From a virus, in UHGV virus genome UHGV-1347488: a stretch of DNA of 27,147 bases. One strand, 5' to 3'. This document shows, one piece after another, positions 18 to 25,729 of the stretch. Every line of letters starts with the position of its first letter. Positions within the stretch are counted from its first letter, which is position 1. The translations under genes were made by a program, and so were the position numbers. The notes beneath the pieces are model-generated. The model was not told the origin of the DNA, searched no databases, and saw nothing but the letters and a program-made list of their open reading frames with translations.

Positions 18-3000
18 TTACACTTCTATTACTTCTTTATCACACATAAGCAAACCATCCAGAAAGCTATTAATAGAACTGATTAACTCTGCATCCTGTG
101 ATGGATCGAGAGACTTCTTAAAGGTAGTGAGATTGCCGCTGATTTCTGATAGAGCACTCTCGGACTCCAAAATCCACGCATCATACTGCTTTTTGGCGTT
201 AGTCAGCATTGTATAATCGGCCTGATCCTGGTATCCGGTAGGATTCTTTTGCTCAATATCCGCAATTTGCTGTTCAATTTTCTCACGTTCTTCCAGATAA
301 CGGTTATAATCTGCCAACTGTTTTGTGGCGTTTTCCATCACTGTACCACGGCCACCAGACATAGTGCCGATATTCTGGTATCCTTCATAAATACTGCTCT
401 TATCAAGGTCAACACCCTCGTAAGAGCCATAATAGGATTCTGCGCCTAACGCTTTTAAAGCATCAGCACGAGACTGTTTTCCGGCAGTATCAGCTTTGAT
501 TTCTGCCAACTGAATGCTGCGTTCCAATTCTGCATTGGCATCTTTCAATTTCTGCAATTCTTCCTGTTCAATGAAAGACAGATGGTCTTTTGCTTCCAAT
601 TCATCAATGCGGCTATTGGTGGTTTTCAACTCATCATTTAAACTTTCAACCTCATTCTTTGCATCCTCATAAGCCTGTGCCGACTCCTCCGCTTTTTCTT
701 TCAGATTGTCGACATTGTGCGCCACATAATCATAAGCTTTGCCAATGGCCCAAATTCCGGCTGTAATAGCCGCTGTGATACCCATGTTAAGAGCCATATT
801 CAGCGCAACGGTTTCTAATTTCAATGCCATTGTTGCTGTCTTGCTCGCATTCAGTGAAGCAGTATAGCCCTTCATCGTAGCTTCGGCACCATTAAGGCCA
901 GAGAGATACGAACGCATATCGAAGTCATTTGTAAGCTGATTGATAGCTTTCTGATTTGCACACTGAGCTTTTACGAGGACATTGTAATTGCTGATGATAC
1001 TATCTGCATTGGCAATAGGCTGTACCACGTTCTTTGTAAATAGGCCGCCGAACTTTTCACCCTCGGCTGATGCCTGTCGCATTTCTTCCAGAGTCTTGCC
1101 TAAGAAGGTAATCTCCGAACCATTGTTATTGAATACCCCGATGGTCTTACCTCTTAAAGCACTTCCGGCTGTGATTGCTCCCATTGCGGTAGAGAGCACG
1201 CCCAGTTTGTCAATTACTTCTGACAGAACATTAAGGAATGCTGCACCGCCATCTGCTGCCCCTTTCAGGAACTCAGAATCTGCAAGCTGCATGGACAATT
1301 TCTCGTAGGCCGCAATCATGGAATTGATATGTGATTGAACTGTATCGGCATAGGCTTCAAATTTCTTTAATGCCTCATCACTAGAATTTTCAGAAATCTT
1401 TGTTAGCTTTTCAACCTTGTCCCAGTTAGATAGAACTATAGCTCCGGTGTTTGCCTGATATACGCCAAAAAGAGCCGAATTAATGGAGTTTCGCTCCACA
1501 TCATTTAATGTGTTGTATCGAGCTGCCAGTTCACGTAATACATCCGATAAATCACGATAGTCTGTCAGGTTTTCTCTTATCTTAATTCCAACTTTTCCGA
1601 GGGCCTTTTCAATATTGCTTAAATCGTCTCCAGATTCATAATCCACAAACTTTCCAACTTTAATTTGGCTATATCTAGCAACGATTGATTTAATGGCATT
1701 ACCTAACTGTTCGTCTCCAAGAGTAGGAGCAGTATCTTTCATGGCCGCAAGCATACCAAGTAATAAATCCACATTAATTCCGGCTTGCTTGGCGGAAGCT
1801 GCCGTTCTTGAAAGTGCTTCTGCAAGACCTCCCGCAGAGCTGGCCGAAGACATATCTACGTTTGACAAACGAGATAAAATGGACATAGTATCAGAAATAT
1901 CCATTTGATAGCCATTTAGAATTGCCATTAAATCTTCCGTAGCACTAGCTTCGTCCATCATACCAATTTTAGATAAGATCATGGAATCCTTAATCAAGGT
2001 ATTGGCTTCGCTGATACTCTTACCAGACCTTAACCAATCATCTGCTGCATTTGCCACAGATGTTGTTGTAGAACCTAAGTCCTGCGCCATCTGATTGTAT
2101 GTACCGATTAATGCCTTAGTCTGCTCTCTTGTTCCGCCAGTCGCAACCTGTAAGTTATACAAGGATGTATCAATATCCTTGGCGGTATTAACCATCTGTT
2201 TGAAAGTCTGGAAAGCCGCAGTCAGAGATACAACATTCGCAACAGCGGAATCAAAGGCGGATTTCATCTCCTGGACTGTCGCATTAGTGGTCAAGCCCAT
2301 CTGCTTTGCTTCACTCTGAATCTGCCTAAACTCGTTCTGCAATGCAGTAAACTTAACAGAATCAGCAGATTGCAAATCAGCTTTAATCTGTGCCAGACGT
2401 GATGAAAAGATTATTGCCGCATCGGTGTTCTTGTTCATCCAGGTATCGAGATTAGTTCCAAATAAAGACTTGTCTGCATTCAGCTTTGTATCTTTAGCAG
2501 CATTTTTCTGCTCAATAGACATCTGTTTGAACCGCTGCGTACAGGTATTAAGTGATTCTGTCAGCTGATTGTATAGCTTAATCTTGCCCTCCGGCTCATC
2601 AATGCTTCCAATCTGCTGTAGCTGCTGCCGCATGGTCTGGAATGCCTGCGCAACATCATCCGGCATATCAAACTTTGCACCTTTAAATTTGGACTCTAAA
2701 TAGTCGAGGTCAGCCGGAAGCTCACGGATATACTGATCCAATTTTTCAGCTGCATTGGAAGACCATTTCTTCGCAATCTCCGCATTGAAAGACTTAGCCT
2801 TTTCGATGGCCTGGTCATATTTTGCAATCATGGCATCCAGACTGCCCTTATCAGAGATATTTGAAAAATCAATGCTATCGACTAATGACTTGAAGGAGTT
2901 GTTGGTTGAATCACCGGATAAAAAAGATTTATAAGTGGATTTTAGACCTTCTAATTTTGACTGAAACTCTGCTGCTTTTGCAGATACCTCTGCAAACTCT

Positions 3001-4121
3001 TTGCCGGACTGGTCAATGACTTTACTGCCTGCATATACATACTGCCCCATATCATTCAGAGCAAAATTGTATTGCTGGATAATTCCTTTGCCCTTATCTA
3101 ACGTGGCACTAAATTTTGTAATTTCTTCATTACCATTTTCGTTGAACTGTAGCCTAATGTCTTTGTCAGTGATACCATCAAGCTGTGTAAAATACCCTTT
3201 GACCTGTGATGTCAGTTCTGAGATTGTCCCCTTACCGAAGGAAACATCAATATCCAATAGGGATTTCTTAATGTTCTGTGCTTCCGCTGATACATCACCG
3301 TTGATGGATTCCAATTGCGCTTTCAACTGGGTACGCATGACCGCCAAATCAGAATATAACTGGCTATACATATCATCTTCAAAGCCGATTTTATCCTTTA
3401 AATTAACCGGCTCCAACTTATCAATATCAGACTTATACAGCTTGATAGCATTCACAATTTCACGAAACTGCTGCGTAGGATCGGCAGTGCCAGAAAACAT
3501 ATCTTTAAATTTAGAAGACATTTCCTGATAAATACTATCTAACTGGATACCGCTTTTATTTGGATCGGTGATGAATTTGTCTGCGGATACCATCCGTAAA
3601 CTATTCCATTCTTTGCCAAGGTCTGATTTTACAATATCTGGGATTTTGATTCGATCAAGAGATTTGAAATAATTGAAGAAATTATCATAGATTCCAGTTC
3701 TGCTTTGGATTATCTGAGCATTCTTACTAATAACTTCGCCCATCTGAAAGATGTATTCAAGATACTTCGGATTTTCTTTTCCTGTTTGTAGCTCGCCAAT
3801 ACTCACGTTCTGGAGCATGTTGGTAAGGTTCTTAATTTGATTCTGTGCTTGCTTGTTCTTAATGTTGTACTGGTTGATGAGACTGTTTCCTAGTGCTTCA
3901 CCAATCTTCTTTCCAGAATCGGTAGCTGCTTTGGCCCCGGTCGTGCCGAGGTTCTTAATTGACTGTTGGATATTCTTATCCAGTTCGGCTTTCAATTTAA
4001 TCTTAGAGCCAGACGCTTCTATCCGCTTTTGTAGTTCTGCTATATCTTTTGCAATAGCCTTGACCGATTCCTTTAAATCGAGTCCGGCCGTTAGGCCAAT
4101 ATTAAAATCTGTATCTGCCAT
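18..4121 (-). CDS. Phage tail tape measure protein (TP901-family core region, C-terminal coiled coil)
   Basis: 1367-aa ORF with Ala/Gly/Ser-rich tape-measure core (…NLQVATGGTREQTKALIGTYNQMAQDLG…SRLSNVDMSSASSAGGLAEALSRTAASAKQAGINVDLLLGMLAAMKDT…), hydrophobic segment ALNMALNMGITAAITAGIWAIG and long coiled coils. ATG at 4121 with RBS GGAAAGGA 7 nt upstream. Confidence 0.9.
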   Translation of the reverse strand: MADTDFNIGLTAGLDLKESVKAIAKDIAELQKRIEASGSKIKLKAELDKNIQQSIKNLGTTGAKAATDSGKKIGEALGNSLINQYNIKNKQAQNQIKNLTNMLQNVSIGELQTGKENPKYLEYIFQMGEVISKNAQIIQSRTGIYDNFFNYFKSLDRIKIPDIVKSDLGKEWNSLRMVSADKFITDPNKSGIQLDSIYQEMSSKFKDMFSGTADPTQQFREIVNAIKLYKSDIDKLEPVNLKDKIGFEDDMYSQLYSDLAVMRTQLKAQLESINGDVSAEAQNIKKSLLDIDVSFGKGTISELTSQVKGYFTQLDGITDKDIRLQFNENGNEEITKFSATLDKGKGIIQQYNFALNDMGQYVYAGSKVIDQSGKEFAEVSAKAAEFQSKLEGLKSTYKSFLSGDSTNNSFKSLVDSIDFSNISDKGSLDAMIAKYDQAIEKAKSFNAEIAKKWSSNAAEKLDQYIRELPADLDYLESKFKGAKFDMPDDVAQAFQTMRQQLQQIGSIDEPEGKIKLYNQLTESLNTCTQRFKQMSIEQKNAAKDTKLNADKSLFGTNLDTWMNKNTDAAIIFSSRLAQIKADLQSADSVKFTALQNEFRQIQSEAKQMGLTTNATVQEMKSAFDSAVANVVSLTAAFQTFKQMVNTAKDIDTSLYNLQVATGGTREQTKALIGTYNQMAQDLGSTTTSVANAADDWLRSGKSISEANTLIKDSMILSKIGMMDEASATEDLMAILNGYQMDISDTMSILSRLSNVDMSSASSAGGLAEALSRTAASAKQAGINVDLLLGMLAAMKDTAPTLGDEQLGNAIKSIVARYSQIKVGKFVDYESGDDLSNIEKALGKVGIKIRENLTDYRDLSDVLRELAARYNTLNDVERNSINSALFGVYQANTGAIVLSNWDKVEKLTKISENSSDEALKKFEAYADTVQSHINSMIAAYEKLSMQLADSEFLKGAADGGAAFLNVLSEVIDKLGVLSTAMGAITAGSALRGKTIGVFNNNGSEITFLGKTLEEMRQASAEGEKFGGLFTKNVVQPIANADSIISNYNVLVKAQCANQKAINQLTNDFDMRSYLSGLNGAEATMKGYTASLNASKTATMALKLETVALNMALNMGITAAITAGIWAIGKAYDYVAHNVDNLKEKAEESAQAYEDAKNEVESLNDELKTTNSRIDELEAKDHLSFIEQEELQKLKDANAELERSIQLAEIKADTAGKQSRADALKALGAESYYGSYEGVDLDKSSIYEGYQNIGTMSGGRGTVMENATKQLADYNRYLEEREKIEQQIADIEQKNPTGYQDQADYTMLTNAKKQYDAWILESESALSEISGNLTTFKKSLDPSQDAELISSINSFLDGLLMCDKEVIEV

Positions 4122-6087: not shown

Positions 6088-9087
6088 CTACGAAACTGAT
6101 GTTCGTTTCTTTCTGAGCGCATTTTCACGACTGCATGATTCAGAACAGGTTAACGCATTGCCCCACTTAATGTATGGCTTTTGACAGATGATACAATCGC
6201 AGACCTTCTTTTTACCATTATAACGGTAAAAGTACGGCAGCAGCTTCTTAGCCTTATATGGAATCTCGTAAGCAAGTGTTTTTTCTTCCGGCTGATATTC
6301 CAACTGAATTTCTATATAGTCTGCATTCTGCTCTGTACTGATAGCTCCTATTTTAGCCAATCGTGCAATGCCTTTCTTGGCAATCGTAACGTCACCTTCC
6401 AACATCTTATCAATGGCCCCATAAGTCAATGCAGATTTTTTGCCGGAATAAATCTTGATGTTTCCAAATCTCTTTGATAAAATCAATAGGACGAATAAAA
6501 GTTCTCGGTCGTTTTCGGCAGTCGATTTTTTATATGGCTGATTATCAATCCATCCTAATTCTTCCTTATAAATCTGCACCGATTTTTCATCAACTTTCAA
6601 AACGGCCTTTGTAGCACTGTCTGCTACCTTTTCCATCTTAATTACCTTTTCTGTGGTGTATCTGGCTCTCCGCCGCTTAACTTCACAGCCTTTATTCTTC
6701 CGAACTGTATCAGCAATTACATCCCCGAAGCAGTTCCAAAGGATATTTTTTCCTGACATGGCAGTTCCTTCATTGCGCTGCATATATTCATATTCCAAAA
6801 GATATTGTGTGGCTCTTCCCCTATCTGGAATAATCTGTAGAATTAATCTTTCGCACAACAGATAGAACACCTCGTATCGACTAATTTTTTCAGCGAAGCC
6901 ATCTGATTTTGTCTGATGTTCAAGTTCTTTCTGAATGTACTGTTCAAGTTGTTTGGCCCTGGCTTTTAAATCGAACATCAGCTTTTCCAACTGACCGTAT
7001 ACGGCATCTTTAACATTTATGGTCATAGACTGGTCAAACAAGATTGATGGGTCAAATTTTTTGCCGTCCTTATTATATGACTTGTTTCCAGTCTGCTTAT
7101 GGATATACTGGCAAATACGGTCACAGATGCTATCACTTGGTGCTGCACAGTTTTCTTTCTTCTTACCTTTTGCATAGATAAAGAAGTAAGGCGGCTTCTT
7201 TGCTTTCAGTTCCAGATACTTTGCTTCGTACTCTCCCAGAGACACATTTTTCTGGCTCTTCGGAAAATCAATAGTCAGATTGTTGTAGCAGCACATAACG
7301 GCATTGAAGTCATCGTCAATTTCCTTGCTGTTATAATTCTTGGTCATGACGTTGGAAATATCACCAATGTTTGAATTGTTCATGCTTGCCACCAGTGCCG
7401 TATAAATTGCATCCGGTGTAACTGGCGTTTTCTCCGCTGAAAAAGATGTATAATATAAGGTATGTTTATCATCGGGGACACAATCCATCATGGCCTGATT
7501 CGGGGTCAGAAGAATCTCATCCCCATCAACATCAAACTGTAAGACCCGGCATAACAGATCATGACCGCTTACTACGGTATCCAAATCATTAAACCATTCT
7601 TTGCATCTTTCAAGGTCAACACCTTTTACCAGATTGCGAATTCCATGCTCCATATACAGGTGAGGACTTCGCAGACAGTCAACCTTTTCATACGGCTTAT
7701 CATTGAAGAAACTGTTATATACATGATTACGTGGAATCAAACCTTTTGGATTCTCAATGCCACAGAACAACCACTCACAGAAGGCATATAAATCAGGGCA
7801 AATATAGCTATACAGTGAATCCGGCAGAATCAGCTTGCATCCTCGGGCATCGGTGCGTTCGGATTTAAACTTGTTCTGTAGTTGATACTGAACATATTTA
7901 TCTCTCAACATATTTTCTGGATCAGCTTCGACCGCTTCCGCTAAATCACTGTCACCCAAAAGCTTCACGATTTTATCTGGATTCTGTTTCAGGTCTGCCA
8001 GATAATCAATGGTCGGCTTGCATAACTCTTCCATCTTCTCATCAGTGAACTTTTGACTGTCTAAAGTCTGCAAAAACTGATAACTGGTTTTAGCGTAACC
8101 TTTCGGTTCTGTGTCCGCAAATTTATTGATTGCAATTCTCATGCCGTTTGCTTTGAATGCGGCCTTGTACTCTTCCCATGATTTATAGTAGGCGTGCATT
8201 TTTAACTGTGAAGCAGTCAGAATAACTTGAATGTCCTCTGCAATAACATCATGCTCATTTCCCCACGCATCCTTAATAATTGGACTCGGTTTTACTCCTT
8301 CTACGGATGGCTGTGCAAGAAACTTGCGGAAATCAAATGGGAAAATACAGCCTTTCATATGTGCGCATCTGATTTGTGCCGATGCAGGAAGGACACCAGG
8401 CAGAAACATTCCGGCTCCATCAGTTTGAGGAATCTTTATATGTTCCGTCCTTACCTCAATGCCAGTGATAGTTTCATCATCGTGGTCAATGCACTTAACC
8501 TCTTCATCCAGATAGGTTTCAAAGTCACCTACCACAAGGCACTTATCAATATTCAATTCGTAATTGGTGGGAATAAATGATGTTGATAGCGGTAGTCCCT
8601 TATATGCAAGATACTTACCAGTATTACAACCGCCATTAGAGTTAATGAGTTCGTTTGTCAGACCGCACATGAATTGTTTTTCATGCTGTCGGTAAAAATC
8701 CTCTTTGATTAGGATAATCTCACCACGCTTCATCTGATTTGTGGTTGAACTATAAAAGATGTAATGTGTGCCGTCAATGTCTACGCCATTCTGTAGAATC
8801 TGTTTCAGAATCGTATTCTGCTGTGCCACTTTTAGATAAATAATCTCGGTCAACACTGGCGTTCCATCCATAGAATCTGTAGTGTATCGTCCCATCTCGC
8901 TCTCAAAGAGTGCAATCTGATTGTCGGTGCGCTCTTCATCGTTTAGAGATAATGCCGATTTGTAAATCTGCCGGACACCTGTGAAAGATTCTATTAGATT
9001 GTCTCGCTGTTTTTTCAGATACAGCTTGGTGTTTGCTTTTGTGGATTCCTTGTATGCTTTGTGTGCGTTCCGCTCCTCATCGGTCAA
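6088..9087 (-). CDS. Large polymerase-like protein with DxDGD motif; candidate YonO-like single-subunit two-barrel RNA polymerase (C-terminal Cys cluster)
   Basis: 999-aa ORF containing FDVDGDEILLTP, which resembles the metal-binding NADFDGD loop of RNAP beta-prime, YonO and cellular RdRPs; C-terminal CDCIICQ…CSESC. Listed start is TTG with no clear RBS, so the true start is uncertain. Confidence 0.5.
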   Translation of the reverse strand: MTDEERNAHKAYKESTKANTKLYLKKQRDNLIESFTGVRQIYKSALSLNDEERTDNQIALFESEMGRYTTDSMDGTPVLTEIIYLKVAQQNTILKQILQNGVDIDGTHYIFYSSTTNQMKRGEIILIKEDFYRQHEKQFMCGLTNELINSNGGCNTGKYLAYKGLPLSTSFIPTNYELNIDKCLVVGDFETYLDEEVKCIDHDDETITGIEVRTEHIKIPQTDGAGMFLPGVLPASAQIRCAHMKGCIFPFDFRKFLAQPSVEGVKPSPIIKDAWGNEHDVIAEDIQVILTASQLKMHAYYKSWEEYKAAFKANGMRIAINKFADTEPKGYAKTSYQFLQTLDSQKFTDEKMEELCKPTIDYLADLKQNPDKIVKLLGDSDLAEAVEADPENMLRDKYVQYQLQNKFKSERTDARGCKLILPDSLYSYICPDLYAFCEWLFCGIENPKGLIPRNHVYNSFFNDKPYEKVDCLRSPHLYMEHGIRNLVKGVDLERCKEWFNDLDTVVSGHDLLCRVLQFDVDGDEILLTPNQAMMDCVPDDKHTLYYTSFSAEKTPVTPDAIYTALVASMNNSNIGDISNVMTKNYNSKEIDDDFNAVMCCYNNLTIDFPKSQKNVSLGEYEAKYLELKAKKPPYFFIYAKGKKKENCAAPSDSICDRICQYIHKQTGNKSYNKDGKKFDPSILFDQSMTINVKDAVYGQLEKLMFDLKARAKQLEQYIQKELEHQTKSDGFAEKISRYEVFYLLCERLILQIIPDRGRATQYLLEYEYMQRNEGTAMSGKNILWNCFGDVIADTVRKNKGCEVKRRRARYTTEKVIKMEKVADSATKAVLKVDEKSVQIYKEELGWIDNQPYKKSTAENDRELLFVLLILSKRFGNIKIYSGKKSALTYGAIDKMLEGDVTIAKKGIARLAKIGAISTEQNADYIEIQLEYQPEEKTLAYEIPYKAKKLLPYFYRYNGKKKVCDCIICQKPYIKWGNALTCSESCSRENALRKKRTSVS

Positions 9088-10877: not shown

Positions 10878-12098
10878 TTACGCCAACTGTTTTCCTCTAG
10901 CGGAATAAACTTCTGCCCCGGTCAGACCATCAACACACTGTTCAGTGATAAGCACCCTCTTTGCACCCTTCAAGTCTGGCACAGAAAACATAACATCTTG
11001 CATGGCTGACTCAATGATGCTGCGCAGACCTCTTGCACCAGATTTTTGCTTAATTGCTTTTTCCGCAATTTTCCTTAAAGCTTCGTCTGAAAACTCCAGA
11101 TTGACCTTATCCAACTTCATCAGTTCGGCATACTGTTTGGTCAGTGCATTCTTCGGTTCTGTAAGGATACGAAGCAAAGCATCTTCATCAAGTGGCATTA
11201 AGGTTGCCAACACCGGAATACGCCCCATTAACTCAGGAATTAGTCCGTAGTGGACTAAATCGGCATCAGTTATTTTGCTGAAATCGAAACTATCTGAAGG
11301 TGATGTGTTCACTGAATTGAACCCGATGGAATTACCAGAAGATTCCTGACCTACGATTTTCTCAATCCCATCAAATGCCCCACCAACGATAAATAGAATG
11401 TTGGAAGTATCCATACGCACTGTAGCCGCATTTGGGTGTTTGCGTCCGCCGCTTAGCGGTACATCAGCTATGGTTCCCTCCAGAATCTTTAAGAGTGCCT
11501 GTTGTACTCCTTCACCGGAAACATCACGAGTGATAGAAGTGTTCTCGCCTTTTCTGGAAAGCTTATCAATCTCGTCAACGTAAACGATCCCCCGCTGTGC
11601 CAGGTCAAGATCGTGATTGGCGGCATCATATAAGCGGAGTAGGACATTCTCGACATCCTCGCCAACATAACCAGATTCGGTCAGACAAGTGGCATCAGAC
11701 ATAGCAAAGGGAACGCCTAAGAATTTTGCCAGTGATTGAACCAGATATGTCTTACCGCTTCCTGTTGGCCCTACAAGCATGATGTTTGACTTCTGGATTT
11801 CTACACAGGATTTTGATTTCTGTGAGATGCGCTTGTAATGATTGTAAACCGCCACAGACAGAATCTTCTTTGCATCGTTCTGGCCGATGACATACTCGTC
11901 AAGATGCTTCTTAATCTGACTAGGAGTTGCCAACTTGAAGCTGTTTGATTTTGCGGATTCTTCCTTGTCCTGAAATGCTTCTTCTGCTTGCATAGAACAC
12001 TCACGGCAGAGACAGCCATATTTACCCTTGATGAGATAGTCAACCTGAGACTCGTCCTTGCCGCACATAAAACAGTAGTTAATGCGTTTTGTTGCCAT
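10878..12098 (-). CDS. clpX: ATP-dependent Clp protease ATP-binding subunit ClpX (phage-borne)
   Basis: N-terminal C4 zinc-binding domain (CFMCGK…CLCRECS), Walker [17 protein letters not shown] motif, Walker B VYVDEIDK, sensor and arginine-finger region (SGARGLR); ATG with RBS AAAGGAGAG. Confidence 0.9.
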
Positions 12099-12118: not shown

Positions 12119-12934
12119 CTAGTACATGTCAAAATACATCTTCTGTTTGTTCTTGAATGTTAATGTATATTTTCTAATGGAAGTAACCCAGTCTGCCTTA
12201 GACATTTCAATAGATGATATTTGCTTTTCAAATACTTCAATAAAGCATTCAACCTTATTATCACTGTCTTCCCATCCATGCTTAAATGCAATTTTGTTAG
12301 AATAAAAACGAATTGGTTTTGTATCAAACACTAAATCCTGTTTGATTCTGATATTATGATCAAAGTATGTAACCGTGATATTCGGACGGTACATATCCTG
12401 ATTGTTCTTTAACCGCTTAACAAATTCATCCCACCATGTCGTACCGCATTGTTCCATTCTTTGAATATAAGCAAAAAATTTTCCAATAATTACATTGATA
12501 TTTTCATCCAAACATTTTTTATATGCATCTGGATAGTCTCTGGCATAAATTTCATTATTGCTCATACCACTGTAACTAATTTTTCTGCTCTTATGGAGCA
12601 TATCCTTAATCAACTTATATAAATTATCATATAGCTCTTTTGTGAGAAGTCCGGTCTTTGATGCACATTCAATTAACAACTTTTTGACTTCACTATTTTT
12701 CACCATTTTTGCAATTTCATCATTATTCAATGTACAGAACTGATACGTCTTTCCACTATATAAATATCCACATTTAGGATACAACTCTCCTTCTCGATAA
12801 TAAAAATCCATTGGTATATAATTTCGACAACCGATGCGGCTCTCTCTGTCATGGTCATGGTATTTCTGACACACGCCATATAATCTATTTAATTTACACA
12901 TATCACACAATTCTTTTTCTACTAATAAAAACAT
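12119..12934 (-). CDS. Hypothetical Cys-rich protein (271 aa), first gene of the ClpX operon
   Basis: ATG with RBS AAGGAGAAAGG; N-terminal Cys/His cluster (CDMCK…CQKYHDHD…C); stop 21 nt before the ClpX start. Confidence 0.7.
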   Translation of the reverse strand: MFLLVEKELCDMCKLNRLYGVCQKYHDHDRESRIGCRNYIPMDFYYREGELYPKCGYLYSGKTYQFCTLNNDEIAKMVKNSEVKKLLIECASKTGLLTKELYDNLYKLIKDMLHKSRKISYSGMSNNEIYARDYPDAYKKCLDENINVIIGKFFAYIQRMEQCGTTWWDEFVKRLKNNQDMYRPNITVTYFDHNIRIKQDLVFDTKPIRFYSNKIAFKHGWEDSDNKVECFIEVFEKQISSIEMSKADWVTSIRKYTLTFKNKQKMYFDMY

Positions 12935-13940
12935 AATGCCTTTCTCCTTTATTTTGATATATGTATATAGAAGATTCTCTATCTGGAATCTTGTTTTATC
13001 GTGATGATGAAGGTTACGGCAAATTTACCAGAACCTTTGTATGGGGATCGGGTTTACCAAATTCGGTAAAGTTGGTTTATCATGCTCCAATTATGGATAA
13101 TATTATGTAAACAAAATAGACATATCCAGAAATGGACATTAATCTTCGATATCTATTTTTGCTATTTGTCCGCATATTTCCCATCTGTCCGTATATCCAC
13201 CATCGGGAACAGAACATTAAGAAACACCTGTATTTCCTAGCGTTTCTCATCGTACCAACTAGAAACTGAATCATCTGCCAACGCCAGACTAGCACTCTGA
13301 GCCAAAACAGTCTTAATGTCTTTAATTCCCAGTATTTATATAGGATTTAAGCATTTCCAAGTAAATTCAGGCTTATCGGTAGTGACATCGCAAAAAGGAA
13401 GTAAATCCTTACCTTTTCAGCATTGGTATCCCATAAATTGAACATCTAAAAATTCAAAAATTTTATACTTTTGACCGTAAAACCCTTGTAATCCTTACAT
13501 TTTTACGATACCGATTTTCTTTCCGAAGTCTCCATGATTTTTCACATTTTTGCGATAAACCTATCCGGCACGATTTCTGGCCCAGTTATTCCAACGCTCA
13601 CACTTAGCTTCTGCTTTCTCCTGTGTATTAAATACACACCGTCTACGGATACCAACACAAGAATCAGTATCAGATACATGAATCTTTACTCTTAGATTCT
13701 CCTTGCCTAGATCAGATACAACAATTCCAGTCTGCACCTTCCAGATGCGTCGATTCTTCCGTTTAACCAGAAACCTTTGAATGAACCACACCTGCTGTCC
13801 CTCTGTAAATACCAACTGAATCACTCTCCTTTTGATTTGGACATTTTGTTTATGTCTAAATTTGCACGATAGCTCACCCAAATGAGCCTTATTTTACTGG
13901 ACTTTAGACACATTCTATAGGGAAAAATGGGACCATGGAA

Positions 13941-14305
13941 TTTGCATTATCCAAAGTCCTACAAAGCTAGTAAATAAGCCATTTTTACGATTATATATAC
14001 GCAAAATTCATACCTATCATTTTGCATTATTCCGTTCATTTCATACATTGTTCACTCATTGAATTTTTAAAATTCTTATTGCTTTGCCATCGAAAATGTG
14101 CTAAAATAAGTTCAACTAAAAAGATTATGCAAATGATTTTTTAAGTTATTTTTTTGCATTATAGAAAGTCGAGAAACCCTTGATTTTACTAGCTTTTAGA
14201 CACAATTAACATGCAAAATTCATACCATGGATTTGCATTATAGAAAGTCGGAAATCCCTTGTAATTACTGGGTTTTGGTGACAATTAACATGCAAAATTC
14301 ATACC
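13941..14305. repeat. Array of about 74-bp direct repeats with 5-bp spacers (period about 79 bp); candidate origin or iteron/promoter array
   Basis: Units 13941..14014, 14153..14226 and 14232..14305 each start TTTGCATTAT and end (A/C)GCAAAATTCATACC; spacers ATGGA/TATCA; a diverged longer unit at 14020..14152 and a partial unit at about 13900..13940. The last two units are about 85% identical. Confidence 0.7.
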
Positions 14306-14342
14306 TATGTATAGAATGTATTATATACCGATAGGTATACGT

Positions 14343-16250
14343 CTAAGCCATTAGCTTAATGGTAATATCAATATCATCTTTACTCTTATCAATTCCAACC
14401 ACTTTATCAGTATTAGGATTATCAACAATCACACCACCATCATTACAAGTATTATCATTATACTTATTAGTGTGTTTTTGCGAGTAAATATTATACCAAT
14501 TTCCTTTATCACTTCTATTCTGTATCACATCAATACACTGCGCAGATTGCAGGTTCTTAATTGCTTCAATAATGTTCGGTTTTCCGAAATGAAGAATCCT
14601 ATCCATTTCCTCAATCGTACATGCACGACCATTTCTGATGTTGTTTACGATACACAGAAATACCTTAAATTCATTCTGTGTAATCTGCTTCGCAATGAAC
14701 GCTCTTGCCGCACTGTAGTAAAACTCAATATACTTATCATTAAAGTCTTTCAATCCTCTTTTGATTTTAATTTTCGTCAAATCAAAGGAATTTTTTGACT
14801 TGTTTTCCGGCTCTACTAATTCAATACAATGATGCGCTACCAAGCGTTCTAAAGTATCTTTAAATGTTCTTATATCCATGCAAAGTTGCCATTTCCCATG
14901 TATTTTGTACTGCATTTTCATCTTCAAATTTCTAATTGTAAACGGTGTTTTAGAACCGCTCTTGATGTATTTATAAAGGATCGTCATAATCAGATATTCA
15001 AATCCGCTCATGCTGATGTCCTTGTCATTTCTCAGCCGATTATCCGTCAACAGCTTCTGTGACATCTTCACGCCAATATCTTCCTGAATGGAAATAACTT
15101 TCTTCTGAACAGCTTGCATACAATGGAGTTTGTCGCACTGCGCCTGTACCATCTTTTTCACACGTTCATCCGGTATCTGCTCCCAACAACCATTTAAACG
15201 GTAAATGTTTTCATGATCCAGATATGCGTCAATATCTTTCTTTACCTCATTTGAATTCTTCGGTGGTCTACACCTGGTATTCCAGTCAAGACAGATTTCA
15301 CGAACTTTTGATTCTGTGTATCCGTCATATCTCAGCATGGAAACAATACGGCCTAACCAAGTATTGCGCTCACCCTCGTCTGCTCCCTCACGAAGAACTT
15401 TTTCAGTACATAAACACGGATATGTTTTCAGATTAAGGCCATCACCGGAATAATCCCATTTTTCCAACGGTTTGCTTTCTAGTTGGAACTGTTCTTTTTT
15501 CAGTTCGTTTTCTACTCTTCTTCTGATAAATGCGGTGTCCATAGGGTGATAACCTGCCACTTGATTATCATGCTTCTTGTAATGGTCAACTTCCTTTACA
15601 AGCGGAAACTTGCCGTTTTCATCTGGATGTTTGCGGTTATAGGTGCATGGGATTCTGGCTACCTGTGTCACCTTGCAAGCGTTTGTATCTGCTCCTACTA
15701 TCTGGCAAATCATCTTGTTCAGTTCTGATAAATCTCTGACCTTACAAGTCGGTTTCACAATCACATAGAAGTGGTATCCATGTCCAGAATCATACACTGC
15801 ATGGACAAATAAATCTGGTAATTTATCCCTAATCAGCTGCCGAAATTCTTCTACACTGTGGAGATTTTCATGGTCTTTTTTATCGAAATCAATGAATAAA
15901 ACCCTCTGCTGTCTCATATTGGCTTCACGCCTATGTAATTCATTTTTGCGGTCATATTTTACTGTTGCAAGTGCATTATAAATATGATAATTGTGTCTGT
16001 ACTTCATGATACACTCAACGTACTGGTCAAAATTTTTTACATAGCGGTGGAACTTAATCTCGTTTCCATCTTTATCTAATGCCGGATTACCCTGTTCATC
16101 CGTTTTTGCAATGAACAAACAAATAAATTCTTTTTCTTCCAGTTTGGAAGGGTATAACATCTCATAGTATCTTTTTAAATGATTGCTAATAGTAGTACCT
16201 TCTTTCTTACCATTCTGTCGGTAGTAAAATTGTTGTTCTTGTGTCCTCAT
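14343..16250 (-). CDS. Archaeo-eukaryotic-type primase-polymerase (PrimPol-like replication protein)
   Basis: 635-aa ORF with AEP motifs in order: VLFIDFDKKD (DxD), DSGHGYHFYV (sxH) and ARIPCTYNRK (R-x-P-G/C-x-N); large C-terminal domain. The start has a weak RBS and is overlapped by the upstream ORF. Confidence 0.65.
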   Translation of the reverse strand: MRTQEQQFYYRQNGKKEGTTISNHLKRYYEMLYPSKLEEKEFICLFIAKTDEQGNPALDKDGNEIKFHRYVKNFDQYVECIMKYRHNYHIYNALATVKYDRKNELHRREANMRQQRVLFIDFDKKDHENLHSVEEFRQLIRDKLPDLFVHAVYDSGHGYHFYVIVKPTCKVRDLSELNKMICQIVGADTNACKVTQVARIPCTYNRKHPDENGKFPLVKEVDHYKKHDNQVAGYHPMDTAFIRRRVENELKKEQFQLESKPLEKWDYSGDGLNLKTYPCLCTEKVLREGADEGERNTWLGRIVSMLRYDGYTESKVREICLDWNTRCRPPKNSNEVKKDIDAYLDHENIYRLNGCWEQIPDERVKKMVQAQCDKLHCMQAVQKKVISIQEDIGVKMSQKLLTDNRLRNDKDISMSGFEYLIMTILYKYIKSGSKTPFTIRNLKMKMQYKIHGKWQLCMDIRTFKDTLERLVAHHCIELVEPENKSKNSFDLTKIKIKRGLKDFNDKYIEFYYSAARAFIAKQITQNEFKVFLCIVNNIRNGRACTIEEMDRILHFGKPNIIEAIKNLQSAQCIDVIQNRSDKGNWYNIYSQKHTNKYNDNTCNDGGVIVDNPNTDKVVGIDKSKDDIDITIKLMA

Positions 16251-17198: not shown

Positions 17199-17567
17199 TT
17201 ACTGTGCAAAATAATCTGCCAGTTCTTCCAGACTCATAGGAGTCTCGCCCGCCTGTAACACACTGCTGCTATCTGCAATCAGCCAGCCGGAAGTACCCAA
17301 CACATGCTCTTTTGCTGGCACAAGGTGTAATCCGCTCTTCTTGGCTTTTTCCTCCATCTGTCCCAATGTCAGAATTGGATTCACCTTTACTGCTCTACTT
17401 CCTCTTTCTGAGTTCTCAGCTTCAAAATCTACAATGTCATCATCATCTAAGGTGCGGAATCCCTGCATCTGAATATCGGTCTGATGCACGAAATAATCCT
17501 TGTGGTTATCACCAGTGATGAATCCCCATCCTTTAGTCTTGTCGAATAATTTAACTGTTCCTCTCAT
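17199..17567 (-). CDS. Cold-shock domain protein (CspA-like N-terminal domain with about 55-aa C-terminal extension)
   Basis: MRGTVKLFDKTKGWGFITGD…DYFVHQTDIQ matches the RNP1 (KGFGFI) and RNP2 (VFVHF) motifs of cold-shock proteins; RBS AAAGGAGA 8 nt upstream; about 260-bp untranslated region upstream. Confidence 0.75.
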   Translation of the reverse strand: MRGTVKLFDKTKGWGFITGDNHKDYFVHQTDIQMQGFRTLDDDDIVDFEAENSERGSRAVKVNPILTLGQMEEKAKKSGLHLVPAKEHVLGTSGWLIADSSSVLQAGETPMSLEELADYFAQ

Positions 17568-17830: not shown

Positions 17831-18052
17831 TTAAGACATCTTTACAAATTTGTATCCAGTGACTTTGATAGCCCTAGGACTATTTTTTCTGCTGATTAAC
17901 CCTAATTTTTCCAGTTGATTTAGTTTCTTAAAAACTATAGATACGCAGCATTCCGCTTCTTCTGCGATCTCTCTGACTGTTGGTGGATAACCGTTTTCTT
18001 CCAGGTAATCACAGATGAATTTATAAATAAATTCACCCTTATCTGTTATCAT
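17831..18052 (-). CDS. LexA-N-terminal-domain-like winged-HTH protein (73 aa, no peptidase domain)
   Basis: FIYKFICDYLEENGYPPTVREIAEE…VFKKLNQLEKLGLISRK…RAIKV parallels the LexA DNA-binding domain (…G.PPT.REIA…HL.ALE.KG.I…R.I.L); RBS AGAAGGAG. Confidence 0.6.
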   Translation of the reverse strand: MITDKGEFIYKFICDYLEENGYPPTVREIAEEAECCVSIVFKKLNQLEKLGLISRKNSPRAIKVTGYKFVKMS

Positions 18053-19338: not shown

Positions 19339-20031
19339 TTACTCCGGTTTCTTGCAGTAAACCAACTTGACCGTGGTAAACGGCTGACCGTAAGGGAAGA
19401 TACGGAAGCAGCGCATATCTCCGGTGGTCTTGGACTGAAACTCGTTGCAGCTGTCATCGAATACAGTCAGGGCATAATTGGTACCATCAGCATTGACCCG
19501 GAGTTTCAGATTGTCCTCATCACATTCATCAATGAAAGCATTCCCGCCGTAGATGTTCATGTTCAGCGCAAAGCTGTCAGACACATTAACAGATACCAGA
19601 TAGTAACCGTTCGTGCCGTGAAGTGCTTCGTCCATGAAGGTCATCATATTGTCCAGGTCAACTTCATGCCAACCTTCTAAATCATCGGCTGACCACTCGT
19701 TAAAGAATGTCAGGCACAATTTCTGATCGTCCGGCAAGTCGAATTGCAGAATCAAATAGTTGCCCTCTTCTTCATCTTCTTTCAGGGTAGCGTTGGTCAT
19801 ATCTTCATATCTGATTGCGATACCGTTTGTACCGTCAAGAGTGCCGGACTGGTAGAACTCAATCTTATCCTCAAACAGCTCACATCTGTTGGCATACAGC
19901 TTTACTACATCGTCACCCTCAGCGTCCGTTACAACAACCTGTGTGATATTGTAGGCTTCAACTAAGGATTTGATGTCCTCTGCATTAATCTTTTTGGCAC
20001 TGGTTTTAACTCTCTTTACTACTTCGTTCAT
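19339..20031 (-). CDS. Hypothetical acidic protein (230 aa) downstream of the tubulin-like GTPase gene
   Basis: ATG with RBS GAGGAAA; no recognisable motif; its position could correspond to an accessory partition factor, but that is unproven. Confidence 0.65.
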   Translation of the reverse strand: MNEVVKRVKTSAKKINAEDIKSLVEAYNITQVVVTDAEGDDVVKLYANRCELFEDKIEFYQSGTLDGTNGIAIRYEDMTNATLKEDEEEGNYLILQFDLPDDQKLCLTFFNEWSADDLEGWHEVDLDNMMTFMDEALHGTNGYYLVSVNVSDSFALNMNIYGGNAFIDECDEDNLKLRVNADGTNYALTVFDDSCNEFQSKTTGDMRCFRIFPYGQPFTTVKLVYCKKPE

Positions 20032-21183: not shown

Positions 21184-21444
21184 TTACTCCTCTTGTTCCA
21201 TCTCATCCATCCATTGAATTCCTGTGGAAGTAATATAGTAGGTTTTGGCGTTTAACTGGTTCATACCATATTTGATGTATCCCAGATTAATCAGCTCCTT
21301 TAGATGCTTATAGATAACCTTGTAAGAGTATTTGATACCAATCTCTGCAAGACCCTCTTCAATCATCTTCTGAGTAGCCGCAACTAACTTGCTTCTTGCT
21401 TCCGCATGGAATAGGACGTTGAGAATTTCGTAATTTGTACGCAA
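21184..21444 (-). CDS. Small winged-HTH protein upstream of the tubulin-like gene (TubR-like by position and size)
   Basis: 86-aa ORF with TTG start and AGGAAGG RBS; helix-wing segment YKVIYKHLKELINLGYIKYG…NAKTYYITSTG; arrangement resembles tubR-tubZ operons. Confidence 0.45.
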   Translation of the reverse strand: MRTNYEILNVLFHAEARSKLVAATQKMIEEGLAEIGIKYSYKVIYKHLKELINLGYIKYGMNQLNAKTYYITSTGIQWMDEMEQEE

Positions 21445-23188: not shown

Positions 23189-24055
23189 TTATTTCAAATA
23201 CAATGGATGGCTATTATCGTCCGCTTCCTTCTCAAAGTCACCATTGAATTTATATTGACCCTGGTGATCGGGTTTACTATTATAAACTTCATAGCCACCA
23301 TTTTCAAAATCTGTGGATAAATACACATCCAATTTGGGACTTTTAAAAACCTGTCTTTTAGGAGATTGTCCATCTCTCTTTTTAGCTTTTCGCTTATTTA
23401 AAGCGGTAAGTTTAGAATCGTATGTATACTTATTTCGTTCTGCAACTTCCATTCCAATTTTATGAAGGGTTGCTATTTTATCATCAATTGAATTAGAACG
23501 TAATATTTCAGATCTCCATTCGTTATATCCATTACACAATACAGATGCTGGAAACTTATTATTAAATGATGGGACAGAAATTTGTATTAATTCATCTTGT
23601 TGAATCCATCTTTTAATATTTGAATCAACTTCCTGATCAAAATTTCCTATAAAAAATATTTTATCATTCAATTGTTTTTGTTGTAACTCTCTATGCCGTC
23701 TATCTTTAATGTATGGGATTACAACAATATTATCTTCTGATATACTTAGAATATATTTTATTTTTCCAACAAAAGCCTTCGTAAAACCGAGATTATTCAA
23801 AGCAATGTCTTCAGCTTCTGACACAAGACCTGCATCATATTTATCTACCTTATGAGTTTTTAAAATTGAATGATTTACCTCTCTGAACCTGGAAGATCTG
23901 TTATATGACTTTGTGGAAGTTGCAAAAGGTTCAAACATAACTAATTTTGCATTGAAAAAATTTTCAACAACTAATAAAAAATCATTCAAGTATTTTTGCT
24001 GTTCAATGCTTGTTTGATAAAATTTTTCATCGATAAGTATTTTATATGTTGGCAT
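23189..24055 (-). CDS. Unknown-function partner protein of the ABC ATPase (288 aa; candidate effector of a two-gene defence-like module)
   Basis: ATG (MPTYKILIDEKF…) with RBS CAGGAGAG; start lies 1 nt after the ATPase stop codon; basic C-terminal region (KRKAKKRDGQSPKRQ); no HNH-type Cys/His pattern. Confidence 0.7.
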   Translation of the reverse strand: MPTYKILIDEKFYQTSIEQQKYLNDFLLVVENFFNAKLVMFEPFATSTKSYNRSSRFREVNHSILKTHKVDKYDAGLVSEAEDIALNNLGFTKAFVGKIKYILSISEDNIVVIPYIKDRRHRELQQKQLNDKIFFIGNFDQEVDSNIKRWIQQDELIQISVPSFNNKFPASVLCNGYNEWRSEILRSNSIDDKIATLHKIGMEVAERNKYTYDSKLTALNKRKAKKRDGQSPKRQVFKSPKLDVYLSTDFENGGYEVYNSKPDHQGQYKFNGDFEKEADDNSHPLYLK

Positions 24056-24056
24056 A

Positions 24057-25487
24057 TCAACTCTCCTGTTTCTGCAAATTTCTATATCCAACATCTATGA
24101 TTTTAGCTGTTTCATTTGAAAATTGATAAAAGAAATTTTCATTTTCACATAATGCCCCGTCAACTTCATCAATCACTATAGGTGTTATAAAAGACATACC
24201 TAATTCATTCTGATCTACAAAATAGATTTGAATTTTATCACGTACCTCTACATCCTCCATATAGCGTCTAACAATTCTATTTACAAAATGATCACTATGA
24301 GTTTCAATAACAACAGATTTATCATGTGTGGAGAGGGATAATAAAAAATCTGCCATTCGCATTTGCATTTTAGGATGCAGGTGAATTTCTGGCTGTTCCA
24401 AAATCAAGGTTTGATTCGAAGACATAATAATTCCTTCGGCTAAAATTGGCAATGACTGACTAATTCCAAATCCAACATCAACCAAATTATGTTTATTTAT
24501 TCTTACTTTTACTAAATCTTGTTGTCTATTATCAAGGAATAGCGTACCTAATTCTAAATATTGCATCCATGAACCAATTAAATCAATAAATTTATTTGAT
24601 TCACATACTGTCTGTGACGGCACATAATTATCTTCCGATTCAGGAGCCATAACACCTACCACAGTATTTTTTTGTTTATTCTTCAATAACAGAGGGGTAT
24701 CTTCACCGGATACACCAACATCAACAACCTTTTTGTCTGCGATATAACGTCTCATAGGATTTTCTCTCAATGGAGCAATATATTGTAATTGAATATACTG
24801 AGATGGAAGAATACTAAAAATTGAAGTTAAAGTTGGAATAAACAATTTTGTAGAAGGATTCATACGTTCTTCGTAAATACTATTTAAAGTCATATTACGA
24901 AAATAACAGATAGCATTGTTAATATTAAAATCTCCTAAATTCCCAGCAACATCTGGGATTTGTGTTCCGCGAACAGTATATGTCTTTTTCCCATTTCTGC
25001 ACAATTCAATTCGTGAATTGATTGAGCCAGTTTTTAATTCTACTTCAATATTAACATCAATGGCATGTAATTTATTTGCATATAAAGAAGCGCCACTATT
25101 ATCAATAGAAACACAATAATTGATGATGAATTTTTCGACATCGTTTCTATAATATAATCTATTCAAATCACGAAACTGAACGTTATCTTTTGAAGCGGTT
25201 TCTTTTGAACGTTTAAGTTCAAAAGTATTGCTAATCGTAAAGAAATTTTCTGAATGTTGATCACACAAAATCTCAGAAAATGTTCCATTGTCTATATATT
25301 TACCGTTAAATAACATTTGGTCGGATGTATTAGTATCTTCAAAAGTTTGCTTTAACATCAGCAAGCTTTTTAAAATAGAACTTTTACCGCTGCTATTTAC
25401 ACCGCACAATACGGTCAGTGGCGCAATCTCTATATCGGTCTTATCTTTAAAGCACTTATAATTTTCCAAACTTATAGATTTCAGCAT
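24057..25487 (-). CDS. AAA15/AAA21-type ABC ATPase (OLD/AriA/PtuA/AbiLi-like)
   Basis: N-terminal I.SI.L.NYKCF with Walker A GVNSSGKS; Q-loop-like QYIAPLRE; signature-like GFGISQSLPILAEG; Walker B LILEQPEIHLHP; H-loop ETHSDH. ATG (MLKSISL…) preceded by GGAGGT at 6 nt. Confidence 0.8.
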   Translation of the reverse strand: MLKSISLENYKCFKDKTDIEIAPLTVLCGVNSSGKSSILKSLLMLKQTFEDTNTSDQMLFNGKYIDNGTFSEILCDQHSENFFTISNTFELKRSKETASKDNVQFRDLNRLYYRNDVEKFIINYCVSIDNSGASLYANKLHAIDVNIEVELKTGSINSRIELCRNGKKTYTVRGTQIPDVAGNLGDFNINNAICYFRNMTLNSIYEERMNPSTKLFIPTLTSIFSILPSQYIQLQYIAPLRENPMRRYIADKKVVDVGVSGEDTPLLLKNKQKNTVVGVMAPESEDNYVPSQTVCESNKFIDLIGSWMQYLELGTLFLDNRQQDLVKVRINKHNLVDVGFGISQSLPILAEGIIMSSNQTLILEQPEIHLHPKMQMRMADFLLSLSTHDKSVVIETHSDHFVNRIVRRYMEDVEVRDKIQIYFVDQNELGMSFITPIVIDEVDGALCENENFFYQFSNETAKIIDVGYRNLQKQES

Positions 25488-25729
25488 TCCCATACCTCCA
25501 TAATCTCCTTTCATTTTACCAAAATTTACCAGTTACTACAATGAGAACGTGTGTATATAGATTCGATATTTTAAAATATTTTTTTATGAAAGAAGCTGCC
25601 GGAATATACCAACGGCTCCCGCATTATTCCTTTCCAATCTTCCACTTAGCAAGTTCTTCCCCCAGGACCCAGCTCAATTCTTTGTACTGCTCCGGTGTGA
25701 GGGTCGTGCCGCATTTTTCTTCCACATTC

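Follow-up and report, generated by a model that had tools for sequence, protein, structure and literature searches.

The DNA analysed here (the window) comprises 27,147 nucleotides (nt) from the virus genome UHGV-1347488, and the single long open reading frame (ORF) found in the region 14343..16250, on the minus strand and of 635 amino acids (aa) in a program-made ORF list, is likely to encode a replication initiator. The protein, called Rep below, would be a single-chain archaeo-eukaryotic primase (AEP) belonging to the PrimPol-PV1 supergroup and a member of the broad family of RepA from plasmid pCD6, with its origin lying directly downstream of the gene. An earlier note on this DNA had proposed an AEP-type replication protein from three peptide motifs and their order; ORF and motif strings were located as described, and the proposed role gained support from a full-length match to pCD6 RepA and from an origin-like cis-element beside the gene. 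The gene, its catalytic domain and the motifs are placed as follows.

14343..16250, minus strand: Rep gene, with an AEP primase, a PriCT-1-like domain, two winged helices and a C-terminal tail (ORF list, alignments)
15546..16163, minus strand: AEP catalytic domain, approximately residues 30-235 (invariant residues, Foldseek, hhalign, Pfam in relatives, PHROG 695)
15873-15902, minus strand: motif I, D121/D123 (invariant columns)
15762-15791, minus strand: motif II, H160 (invariant column)
15687-15695, minus strand: motif III, D188 (invariant column)
15630-15659, minus strand: motif IV, R199/N205 (invariant columns)

The peptides VLFIDFDKKD (residues 117-126, nt 15873-15902), DSGHGYHFYV (residues 154-163, nt 15762-15791) and ARIPCTYNRK (residues 198-207, nt 15630-15659) were evaluated in an alignment of 32 diverse family members with identities down to 18% (alignment A2). 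Columns D121, D123, G156, G158, H160, Y162, D188, R199, N205, C281, C355 and C377 are invariant, as is I200, and S155 is nearly so; the quoted motifs hold the family's most constrained residues and are therefore not chance strings. All nucleotide-binding residues are kept, as expected of what is predicted to be an active primase. The string described earlier as RxPGxN-like corresponds to motif IV of PrimPol-PV1 (R199/N205), in which an Arg and a hydrophobic residue are followed six residues later by a coupled Asn or His (PMC5862659). The R199-N205 spacing of 6 residues is that of R231-N237 in the 'motif IV' of PolpTN2 (PMC5862659), and the D188-R199 spacing of 11 residues is that of D134-R145 in RepB', the primase of RSF1010, where both residues were shown by mutagenesis to be catalytic (PMC8567376).

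In an AlphaFold model of full-length Rep, with a mean predicted local distance difference test (pLDDT) score of 81.9 and scores above 85 over residues 21-250, the N-terminal domain as modeled is an AEP fold, with D121 and D123 in the strand 112-123. The best solved structure identified by Foldseek was RepB' of RSF1010 (3h20, E 3e-8, 358 columns); the AEP domain of the cyanophage S-2L PrimPol was also matched (6zp9, E 8e-6, template modeling (TM) score 0.70 on the target), as were LigD polymerase, PriS, human Pri1 and CAPP, and of 63 viral structures matched at E<=1e-3, most of those with a name are primases or primase-helicases of phages. The earlier reading turned on whether the motifs align with AEP catalytic residues, and in profile-based alignment they do: hhalign against a classified PrimHYQ AEP domain (probability 95.9%, E 5e-9) keeps motifs I-IV in register, pairing DFD with DID, SGHGYH with SGRGLY, GAD with GAD and R..T.N.K with R..GT.N.K. 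D121 and D123 also align with the DID of PolpTN2 and the DVD of RepE/RepS, motif II with SSGKGVH of RepE/RepS in a low-probability hhalign match (24.7%), and motif IV with RAPLTVNHK of PolpTN2 at a probability of just 38.5%. The RepB_primase family of Pfam exceeds its cut-off of 24.3 bits in two relatives (P0228, 28.4; P0263, 25.5), and PHROG 695 'DNA polymerase/primase' matches Rep itself (E 5e-10). By these profile and structure comparisons, the three motifs fall at catalytic positions of AEPs. The Pfam check recommended in the earlier note was less favorable, in that Prim-Pol (PF09250) gave no match in Rep and PriCT_1 stayed sub-threshold (18.9 vs 21.1 bits, E 1.2e-3), as did ligD_pol (E 2e-3, Pfam and NCBIfam scans), TFIIE_alpha and DnaD_N.

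The remainder of the protein, described before as roughly 450 aa, is actually about 400 aa (residues 236-635), with defined domains and no helicase.

15096..15428, minus strand: helical PriCT-1/PriX-like domain, also like the C-terminal domain of PriL, approximately residues 275-385, with four conserved cysteines (C281, C355, C372, C377)
14751..15068, minus strand: first winged-helix domain, approximately residues 395-500 (model secondary structure; PadR/MarR PDB profile matches; helix-turn-helix (HTH) matches in relatives)
14466..14738, minus strand: second winged-helix domain, MarR/TFE/DnaD_N-like, approximately residues 505-595 (Pfam TFIIE_alpha and DnaD_N; PDB profiles MarR/TFE)
14346..14465, minus strand: low-confidence acidic tail ending in IKLMA (pLDDT, C-terminal tabulation, alignment)

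The PriCT-like domain has a conserved signature, RN...GR...WN..C.PPK, and exceeds the PriCT_1 (PF08708) threshold in one relative (P0210, 23.6 bits); the primase-large-subunit family PF04104 exceeds its threshold over the same region in relative P0233 only (32 bits), and a PDB search gave no sequence link between this domain and the PriL iron-sulfur (Fe-S) domain. Of the four cysteines, C372 is invariant in closer sets of sequences only, the other three (C281, C355, C377) in the whole alignment, with spacings in Rep of 74 residues (C281-C355) and 17 residues (C355-C372); the four-cysteine site suggests, as a hypothesis only, a candidate metal or Fe-S site. DnaD_N was matched in 22 of 31 relatives and Foldseek of the Rep model also finds DnaD-N (2v79), and the second winged helix is the likeliest candidate for the sequence-specific DNA-binding module. 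No P-loop, helicase family or loader domain was found in Rep or its relatives, and the helicase-loader function once suggested for the C-terminal region has no support beyond this generic DnaD_N-like winged helix, the sole loader-related signal in Rep. Binding of the downstream repeats, the other function suggested, is plausible and can now be narrowed to the two predicted winged helices. Residues 606-635 are disordered (pLDDT <50), and most family members terminate in LLA, LIA or LMA.

The tie to a known replicon comes from pCD6 (NC_005326), a 6.8-kb plasmid of Clostridioides difficile and a clostridial shuttle-vector replicon, whose repA gene is annotated as encoding that plasmid's replication protein. 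By hhalign, the profile of the family matches pCD6 RepA along the whole of that protein at 100% probability (E 1.2e-72, 499 aligned columns), although aligned identity is just 22%, and a tblastn search with Rep finds pCD6 at E 1e-9 with 24.9% identity over residues 111-411. The AEP motifs (FDFDKK, DSGNGFH, GAD and RVPYTYN.K in pCD6 RepA), the cysteine-bearing helical domain and two winged helices occur in both proteins in the same order, whereas the cysteine pattern of pCD6 RepA ends in CxxC, unlike that of Rep. In both elements a repeat-rich non-coding region follows the gene. In pCD6 it includes two copies of a 30-nt repeat at a spacing of 79 nt and about eight tandem 35-bp repeats, against four ~79-nt units here, and lacks a hairpin and core directly past the stop codon; the present element also differs from the plasmid in having phage structural genes. 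Earlier work reported pCD6 RepA to be similar to RepA of C. perfringens pIP404 (PMC12291638), and Kazlauskas et al. 2018 placed it in an 'HRN' (His/Arg/Asn) AEP covariation set, though not in their family table (PMC5862659).

Relatives of Rep are numerous and poorly named. A search of 5.8 billion proteins gave 141 matches, whose names are absent or read 'predicted transcriptional regulator' or 'MarR transcriptional regulator', and an exhaustive search gave 274 family clusters at 50% identity (E<=1e-3); the regulator names reflect the C-terminal winged helix alone, the primase domain having been missed. By tblastn, relatives occur on 17 plasmids of 4.6-15 kb that carry few other genes, 16 of them clostridial and pCD6 among them, and where a host is named it is mostly one of the Lachnospiraceae or another member of the Clostridia; no GenBank phage was matched by tblastn with Rep, and megablast of the window returned a 54-nt match only. 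These data bear on the idea that Rep is not an initiator at all, being instead an AEP of repair, defence or conflict (LigD-Pol, CAPP, TOTE-like) or a regulator of the winged-helix type whose AEP-like domain is inactive. Weak LigD Prim-Pol and AEP-TOTE matches in Rep or relatives and a defence-like gene pair in the same window would fit it, but the catalytic residues are all invariant, no Ku, ligase, Cas or TOTE partner adjoins the gene, the profile match to pCD6 RepA is full-length, relatives are found on small plasmids with little else, and a cis-element is conserved beside the gene. This idea is accordingly regarded as very improbable.

The cis-element past the stop codon is a candidate, and probable, replication origin. 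Its parts are listed in the order in which they follow the gene.

14324..14339, minus strand: hairpin TATACC-tatc-GGTATA, beginning 4 nt past the stop codon, its 3' arm abutting the core (comparative stem counts)
14306..14321, minus strand: conserved core of the candidate origin, ATACATTCTATACATA, 16 nt (single copy in window; conserved in relatives)
14232..14305, minus strand: iteron-like unit 1 (~79-nt period), with conserved ends GGTnTGAATTTTcC ... CTATAATGCAAA (repeat search, nhmmer)
14153..14226, minus strand: iteron-like unit 2 (repeat search, nhmmer)
14015..14152, no strand assigned: AT-rich spacer between the unit pairs, 138 nt, 24% GC vs 38% for the window (composition)
13941..14014, minus strand: iteron-like unit 3, 62% identical to unit 2 (repeat search, nhmmer)
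13861..13934, minus strand: iteron-like unit 4, degenerate, overlapping the start of a small downstream ORF at 13561-13881 (repeat search, nhmmer)

Direct repeats beside an AT-rich region and next to a rep gene make up the layout of an iteron-type theta origin, in which the spacer is the candidate unwinding region; the conserved core with its covarying hairpin is, as far as the searches went, undescribed. Across relatives the repeat units have the ends gGTnnGAnTTTTCC ... TTTnTATnnTGCAAA. Locus L001, whose protein is 96% identical, has the same unit layout and the same 212-nt spacing, its downstream DNA being 87% identical to the window. When exact repeats were scored in 53 loci, the 600 nt after the gene equalled the highest score of the locus in 17 and ranked in the top 6% in 21, with the upstream segment usually scoring zero. 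An nhmmer profile of the unit finds the units of relatives almost solely downstream of the stop codon; the two exceptions, in L016 and L019, are partial, weak and located about 6.4-6.8 kb upstream. When 16 units were folded together with RNAalifold, no consensus structure emerged (energy 0), and they are therefore not structured RNAs; Rfam returned nothing meaningful for the candidate origin region.

The core is found once, on the gene strand, 6-93 nt past the stop codon and with at most 2 mismatches, in every fetched relative of at least 43% protein identity except L043. A variant, ATACATTCTATACAAT, is carried by relatives of 32-33% identity, a recognisably related core, ATACATTTGTATACAATAGGGGTAATTTT, by the 34-40% clade, and among closer aligned relatives the invariant block covers approximately 14308-14326. 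In IMG/VR an exact search with the 16-mer gave 62 matches, of which 2 adjoin a Rep homologue and the others, without one, are probably chance; the core motif alone is thus not specific at that database size. The tandem 35-bp repeats of pCD6 (locus L057, 3845-4194) hold TATACATTCT on the opposite strand, the same 9-10 nt as the core centre, a sequence match that may represent a shared Rep recognition element or chance.

For the hairpin, stems were counted directly and compared with random positions in the same loci, MAFFT having left the 5' arms out of register on account of differing loop lengths. A perfect stem of at least 5 bp at the same end position is present in 16 of 20 distinct loci (3.2% of random positions), and one of at least 6 bp in 12 of the 20 (1.1% of random positions). 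At least six different stems occur (TATACC, TATTCC, TATCC(TAC), TATCTA, TATATG and TATATTAA), with loops of 3-10 nt. Stems that change in a compensatory way around loops of varying length speak for pairing of the two arms, in single-stranded DNA or in RNA.

One alternative is that transcription is controlled from the hairpin, core and repeats, which would contain the 3' end of the rep transcript and promoters or operators of the downstream genes, or the sites of some other regulator, with the origin located elsewhere. A TATAAT precedes the core, a promoter-like match (ATTACA-17-TATAAT, 10/12) lies within unit 1, and the MarR-like winged helices of Rep, together with the annotation of relatives as transcriptional regulators, are in keeping with such a role. 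However, promoter-like matches are no commoner than in shuffled sequence (12 found, 14.8 expected), the TATAAT of the unit ends is lost in relatives, which have CTATCGTGCAAA or CTATCTTGCAAA, and the compensatory stems with 3-10 nt loops speak for base pairing rather than a dimer operator. Additionally, the core adjoins the Rep gene not only in phage-like elements but also in a small integrase-bearing island with different downstream genes. A purely regulatory region is considered improbable on these grounds.

The island just mentioned is a minimal arrangement of HTH gene, Rep gene, gap and tyrosine integrase in contigs of Blautia metagenome-assembled genomes (L003, L004 and L048; approximately 9263-13462 in L003), and its Rep homologue is 43% identical. 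The core motif is kept there, 71 nt past the stop codon, and no repeat units were detected. Rep and core thus occur in both phage-like elements and an integrase island, and the module therefore moves between element types.

Comparison with classified AEPs places Rep among initiators of similar architecture. The PrimHYQ and RepE/RepS families and ColE2 Rep combine Prim, PriCT-1 and HTH domains without a helicase (PMC5862659). PrimHYQ, found on mobile elements of Clostridia among others, shares the AEP, PriCT-1 and HTH domains and the lack of a helicase with Rep, and would be the nearest classified family as judged by hhalign to one member (the criterion of that paper was CLANS P<=1e-11). Motif II is always His here, whereas PrimHYQ varies between His, Tyr and Gln and the member compared has Tyr, and the Rep proteins are longer, with two winged helices and the four-cysteine site. 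The 358-column structural match to RepB' (3h20; also 3h25) spans the catalytic and helix-bundle domains at a sequence identity of about 9%, with the same Asp-Arg spacing (D134/R145 and D188/R199); RepB' differs in having Gln in motif II where Rep has His, DD in motif I where Rep has DxD, and no winged helices, its partners being a separate initiator, RepC, and a helicase, RepA. RepB' primes de novo at the hairpin-containing ssiA and ssiB sites and needs flanking single-stranded sequence (PMC8567376).

The Inc18 proteins RepE, RepR and RepS (pAMβ1, pIP501, pSM19035) likewise have AEP, PriCT-1 and HTH domains and no helicase. In pIP501 and pAMβ1, oriR lies directly downstream of repR, an inverted repeat is essential, and an AT-rich region melts beside the binding site (PMC4981023). 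Where the present element has four ~79-nt units, Inc18 plasmids have a minimal origin of 52 bp that lacks long repeat units. Profile similarity to RepE/RepS is weak, and their motif III Asp is replaced by Gln, whereas D188 is invariant in the present family; membership in RepE/RepS was ruled out on the invariant D188 and the weak hhalign match (24.7%). No significant sequence match was obtained to ColE2 Rep or to ORF904 of pRN1. ColE2 Rep is much smaller, with a single short origin that lacks iterons, and ORF904 carries a superfamily 3 (SF3) helicase. ColE2-P9 Rep is nevertheless instructive as an origin-specific plasmid primase of RepE/RepS-like domain organisation that unwinds DNA through PriCT-1 and HTH (PMC5862659), and in pRN1 a stem-loop located downstream of the primase (prim-pol) gene serves as the origin (PMC4234260).

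By analogy with RepB', pIP501/pAMβ1, pRN1 and ColE2 Rep, we infer the following course of initiation. The winged helices would bind the repeat units, the core or both, the AT-rich spacer would then open, and the hairpin and core would be presented as single-stranded DNA, on which the AEP domain and the PriCT-like domain, as a PriL-like initiation module, would make a primer at a fixed site. A host polymerase would extend this primer and the host primosome would load the replicative helicase; host enzymes are invoked because the 27-kb window shows neither a helicase nor a DNA polymerase.

The main mechanistic rival is a use of the rep transcript as primer like that of pAMβ1, in which Rep (in the manner of RepE) would bind and melt the origin, rep mRNA running on into the hairpin and core would be processed there as primer and extended by DNA polymerase I, and the AEP site would act on that RNA or lengthen it instead of beginning a primer de novo. 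The hairpin and core lie 4-37 nt past the stop codon with no terminator between, none being predicted after the Rep gene by a terminator scan, and are therefore probably in the rep transcript; pIP501 and pAMβ1 have the same layout of gene followed by origin and require transcription through the origin (PMC4981023), and RepE/RepS share the Prim, PriCT_1 and HTH architecture. Set against this are the weak similarity to RepE/RepS (hhalign probability 24.7%), the retention here of the motif III Asp, which is Gln in RepE/RepS, and of all nucleotide-binding residues, and the de novo priming of the closest structural relative, RepB'. Priming from the rep transcript is for these reasons thought unlikely. 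A bolder form of the AEP-initiator reading has only a small chance of being right: Rep would be a self-sufficient origin-specific primase, uniting a PriS-like part, a PriL-like part with a [4Fe-4S] cluster or metal and origin-reading winged helices, that acts at a hairpin-marked, nearly invariant site of 16-20 nt without an element-encoded helicase and has its level or activity set through the LLA/LMA tail by ClpX, for which the element has its own gene a few kb away. On this reading the site would be common to phage-plasmids and integrative islands of gut Lachnospiraceae that form a large group lacking annotation.

Several observations weigh against Rep as an AEP initiator with an adjacent origin. 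The Rep protein alone passes no Pfam AEP threshold, and PDB sequence and profile searches recover the winged helices only and never the AEP domain or PriL, so that fold comparison was needed. With a fold energy of only -5.5 kcal/mol (z -1.4) the hairpin is weak in thermodynamic terms, and the evidence for it is therefore comparative; it is also not evident in the 34-40% clade, L005 excepted. The TATAAT in the core region makes a promoter role for the core possible. GC skew has no inflection at 14 kb, being negative across the window except at 22-23 kb, and DnaA boxes are not enriched (12 in the window at up to 1 mismatch, 9.9 expected), with only one imperfect box in the candidate origin region. 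Only 27 kb is visible, and a helicase or second initiator could lie outside the window. Finally, in pAMβ1 the rep transcript, and not de novo priming, is believed to supply the primer (PMC4981023), and the same could hold here.

The start codon of Rep is uncertain and could be the ATG at 16250 or M31 at 16160. No obvious ribosome-binding site lies upstream of the former, at which the ORF overlaps an upstream 164-aa ORF by 44 nt (16207-16250), and in the alignment many relatives begin at the Met that corresponds to M31 or 10-14 residues ahead of a conserved LKRYY; the true start may thus differ from ATG 16250. A GAAGG-like ribosome-binding site is present within the overlap, preceding a non-canonical ATT codon.

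The surrounding genes, and those recurring in related loci, indicate the kind of element that Rep would serve.

18-4121: tape-measure gene
6088-9087, minus strand: RdRP-family protein of 999 aa (Pfam RdRP PF05183, E 1e-14; PHROG 8308, function unknown, E 7e-148)
10878-12098, minus strand: ClpX-like ATPase (zf-C4_ClpX, AAA_2, ClpB_D2-small)
12119-12934, minus strand: 271-aa ORF (marginal PDB match to the RPA70 DNA-binding domain, E 0.074)
17199-17567, minus strand: cold-shock-domain protein with a C-terminal extension, upstream of Rep
17831-18052: LexA-type winged helix
20073-21206, minus strand: TubZ/FtsZ-like GTPase (Pfam Tubulin, E 1.5e-21)
21184-21444, minus strand: small ORF upstream of the TubZ-like gene (weak winged-helix-type match)
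23189-25514, minus strand: defence-like pair, an AAA_15/AAA_21 ATPase (PADLOC NsnB, E 4e-65) and a 301-aa protein with NsnC matches (E 1e-9)

The TubZ-like gene and the small ORF upstream of it look like a plasmid partition cassette of the TubZ/TubR type, which suggests that the phage is maintained as a plasmid; an ORF at 19339-20031 (minus strand) is grouped with this cassette, and in about ten related loci a TubZ homologue is present upstream of Rep. With its tape-measure gene and TubZ-type partition gene the element looks like a plasmid-like phage, and such a phage needs an autonomous replicon of the AEP-initiator kind. No integrase, helicase or DNA polymerase was seen in the 27-kb window, and PHROGs gave nothing for nine neighbouring ORFs. 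The TubZ, cold-shock-domain, ClpX, RdRP-like and tape-measure genes recur around Rep homologues in many loci.

In many relatives (L040, L044, L011, L045, L051, L053 and L026) only about 300 nt separate the end of a cold-shock-domain gene from the Rep gene that follows, and its product, as a binder of single-stranded nucleic acid, may belong to the replication module. The 271-aa ORF lies about 900 nt beyond the last repeat unit and belongs to a small unannotated family of 12 proteins; its product could, from the marginal RPA70 match, be a single-strand-binding protein. The ClpX-like gene is about 2.2 kb downstream of rep, and ClpX homologues occur in seven Rep loci. The LLA/LIA/LMA C-terminus of the Rep proteins (14346-14360 here), which follows a disordered linker, resembles a C-terminal ClpX degron of the LAA type, and an action of the element's ClpX on the Rep tail is a speculative suggestion. 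The 6088-9087 product, which has homologues encoded downstream of Rep in several of the related loci, resembles the YonO-type single-subunit RNA polymerases of Firmicute prophages. The pair at 23189-25514, the ATPase of which is also similar to AriA, GajA and Old, is by these similarities a candidate anti-phage defence system.

In summary, AEP-PriCT-1-HTH initiators had been recognised by comparative genomics and on a small number of plasmids (Inc18, ColE2, RSF1010), with most members unannotated or mislabelled, and the present analysis assigns to this class a family of 274 clusters that includes the Rep of gut Lachnospiraceae phage-plasmid-like elements and is tied to the annotated replication protein of pCD6, a replicon reported in papers on clostridial genetic tools. 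A compact candidate origin is defined, consisting of the 3' end of the gene and about 520 bp with a nearly invariant core, and rep together with this origin is suggested as a candidate replicon for Lachnospiraceae shuttle vectors. The core motif offers a simple marker for finding such elements, and the covarying hairpin with its invariant core would provide a defined substrate for origin recognition and priming by an AEP initiator that has no helicase.

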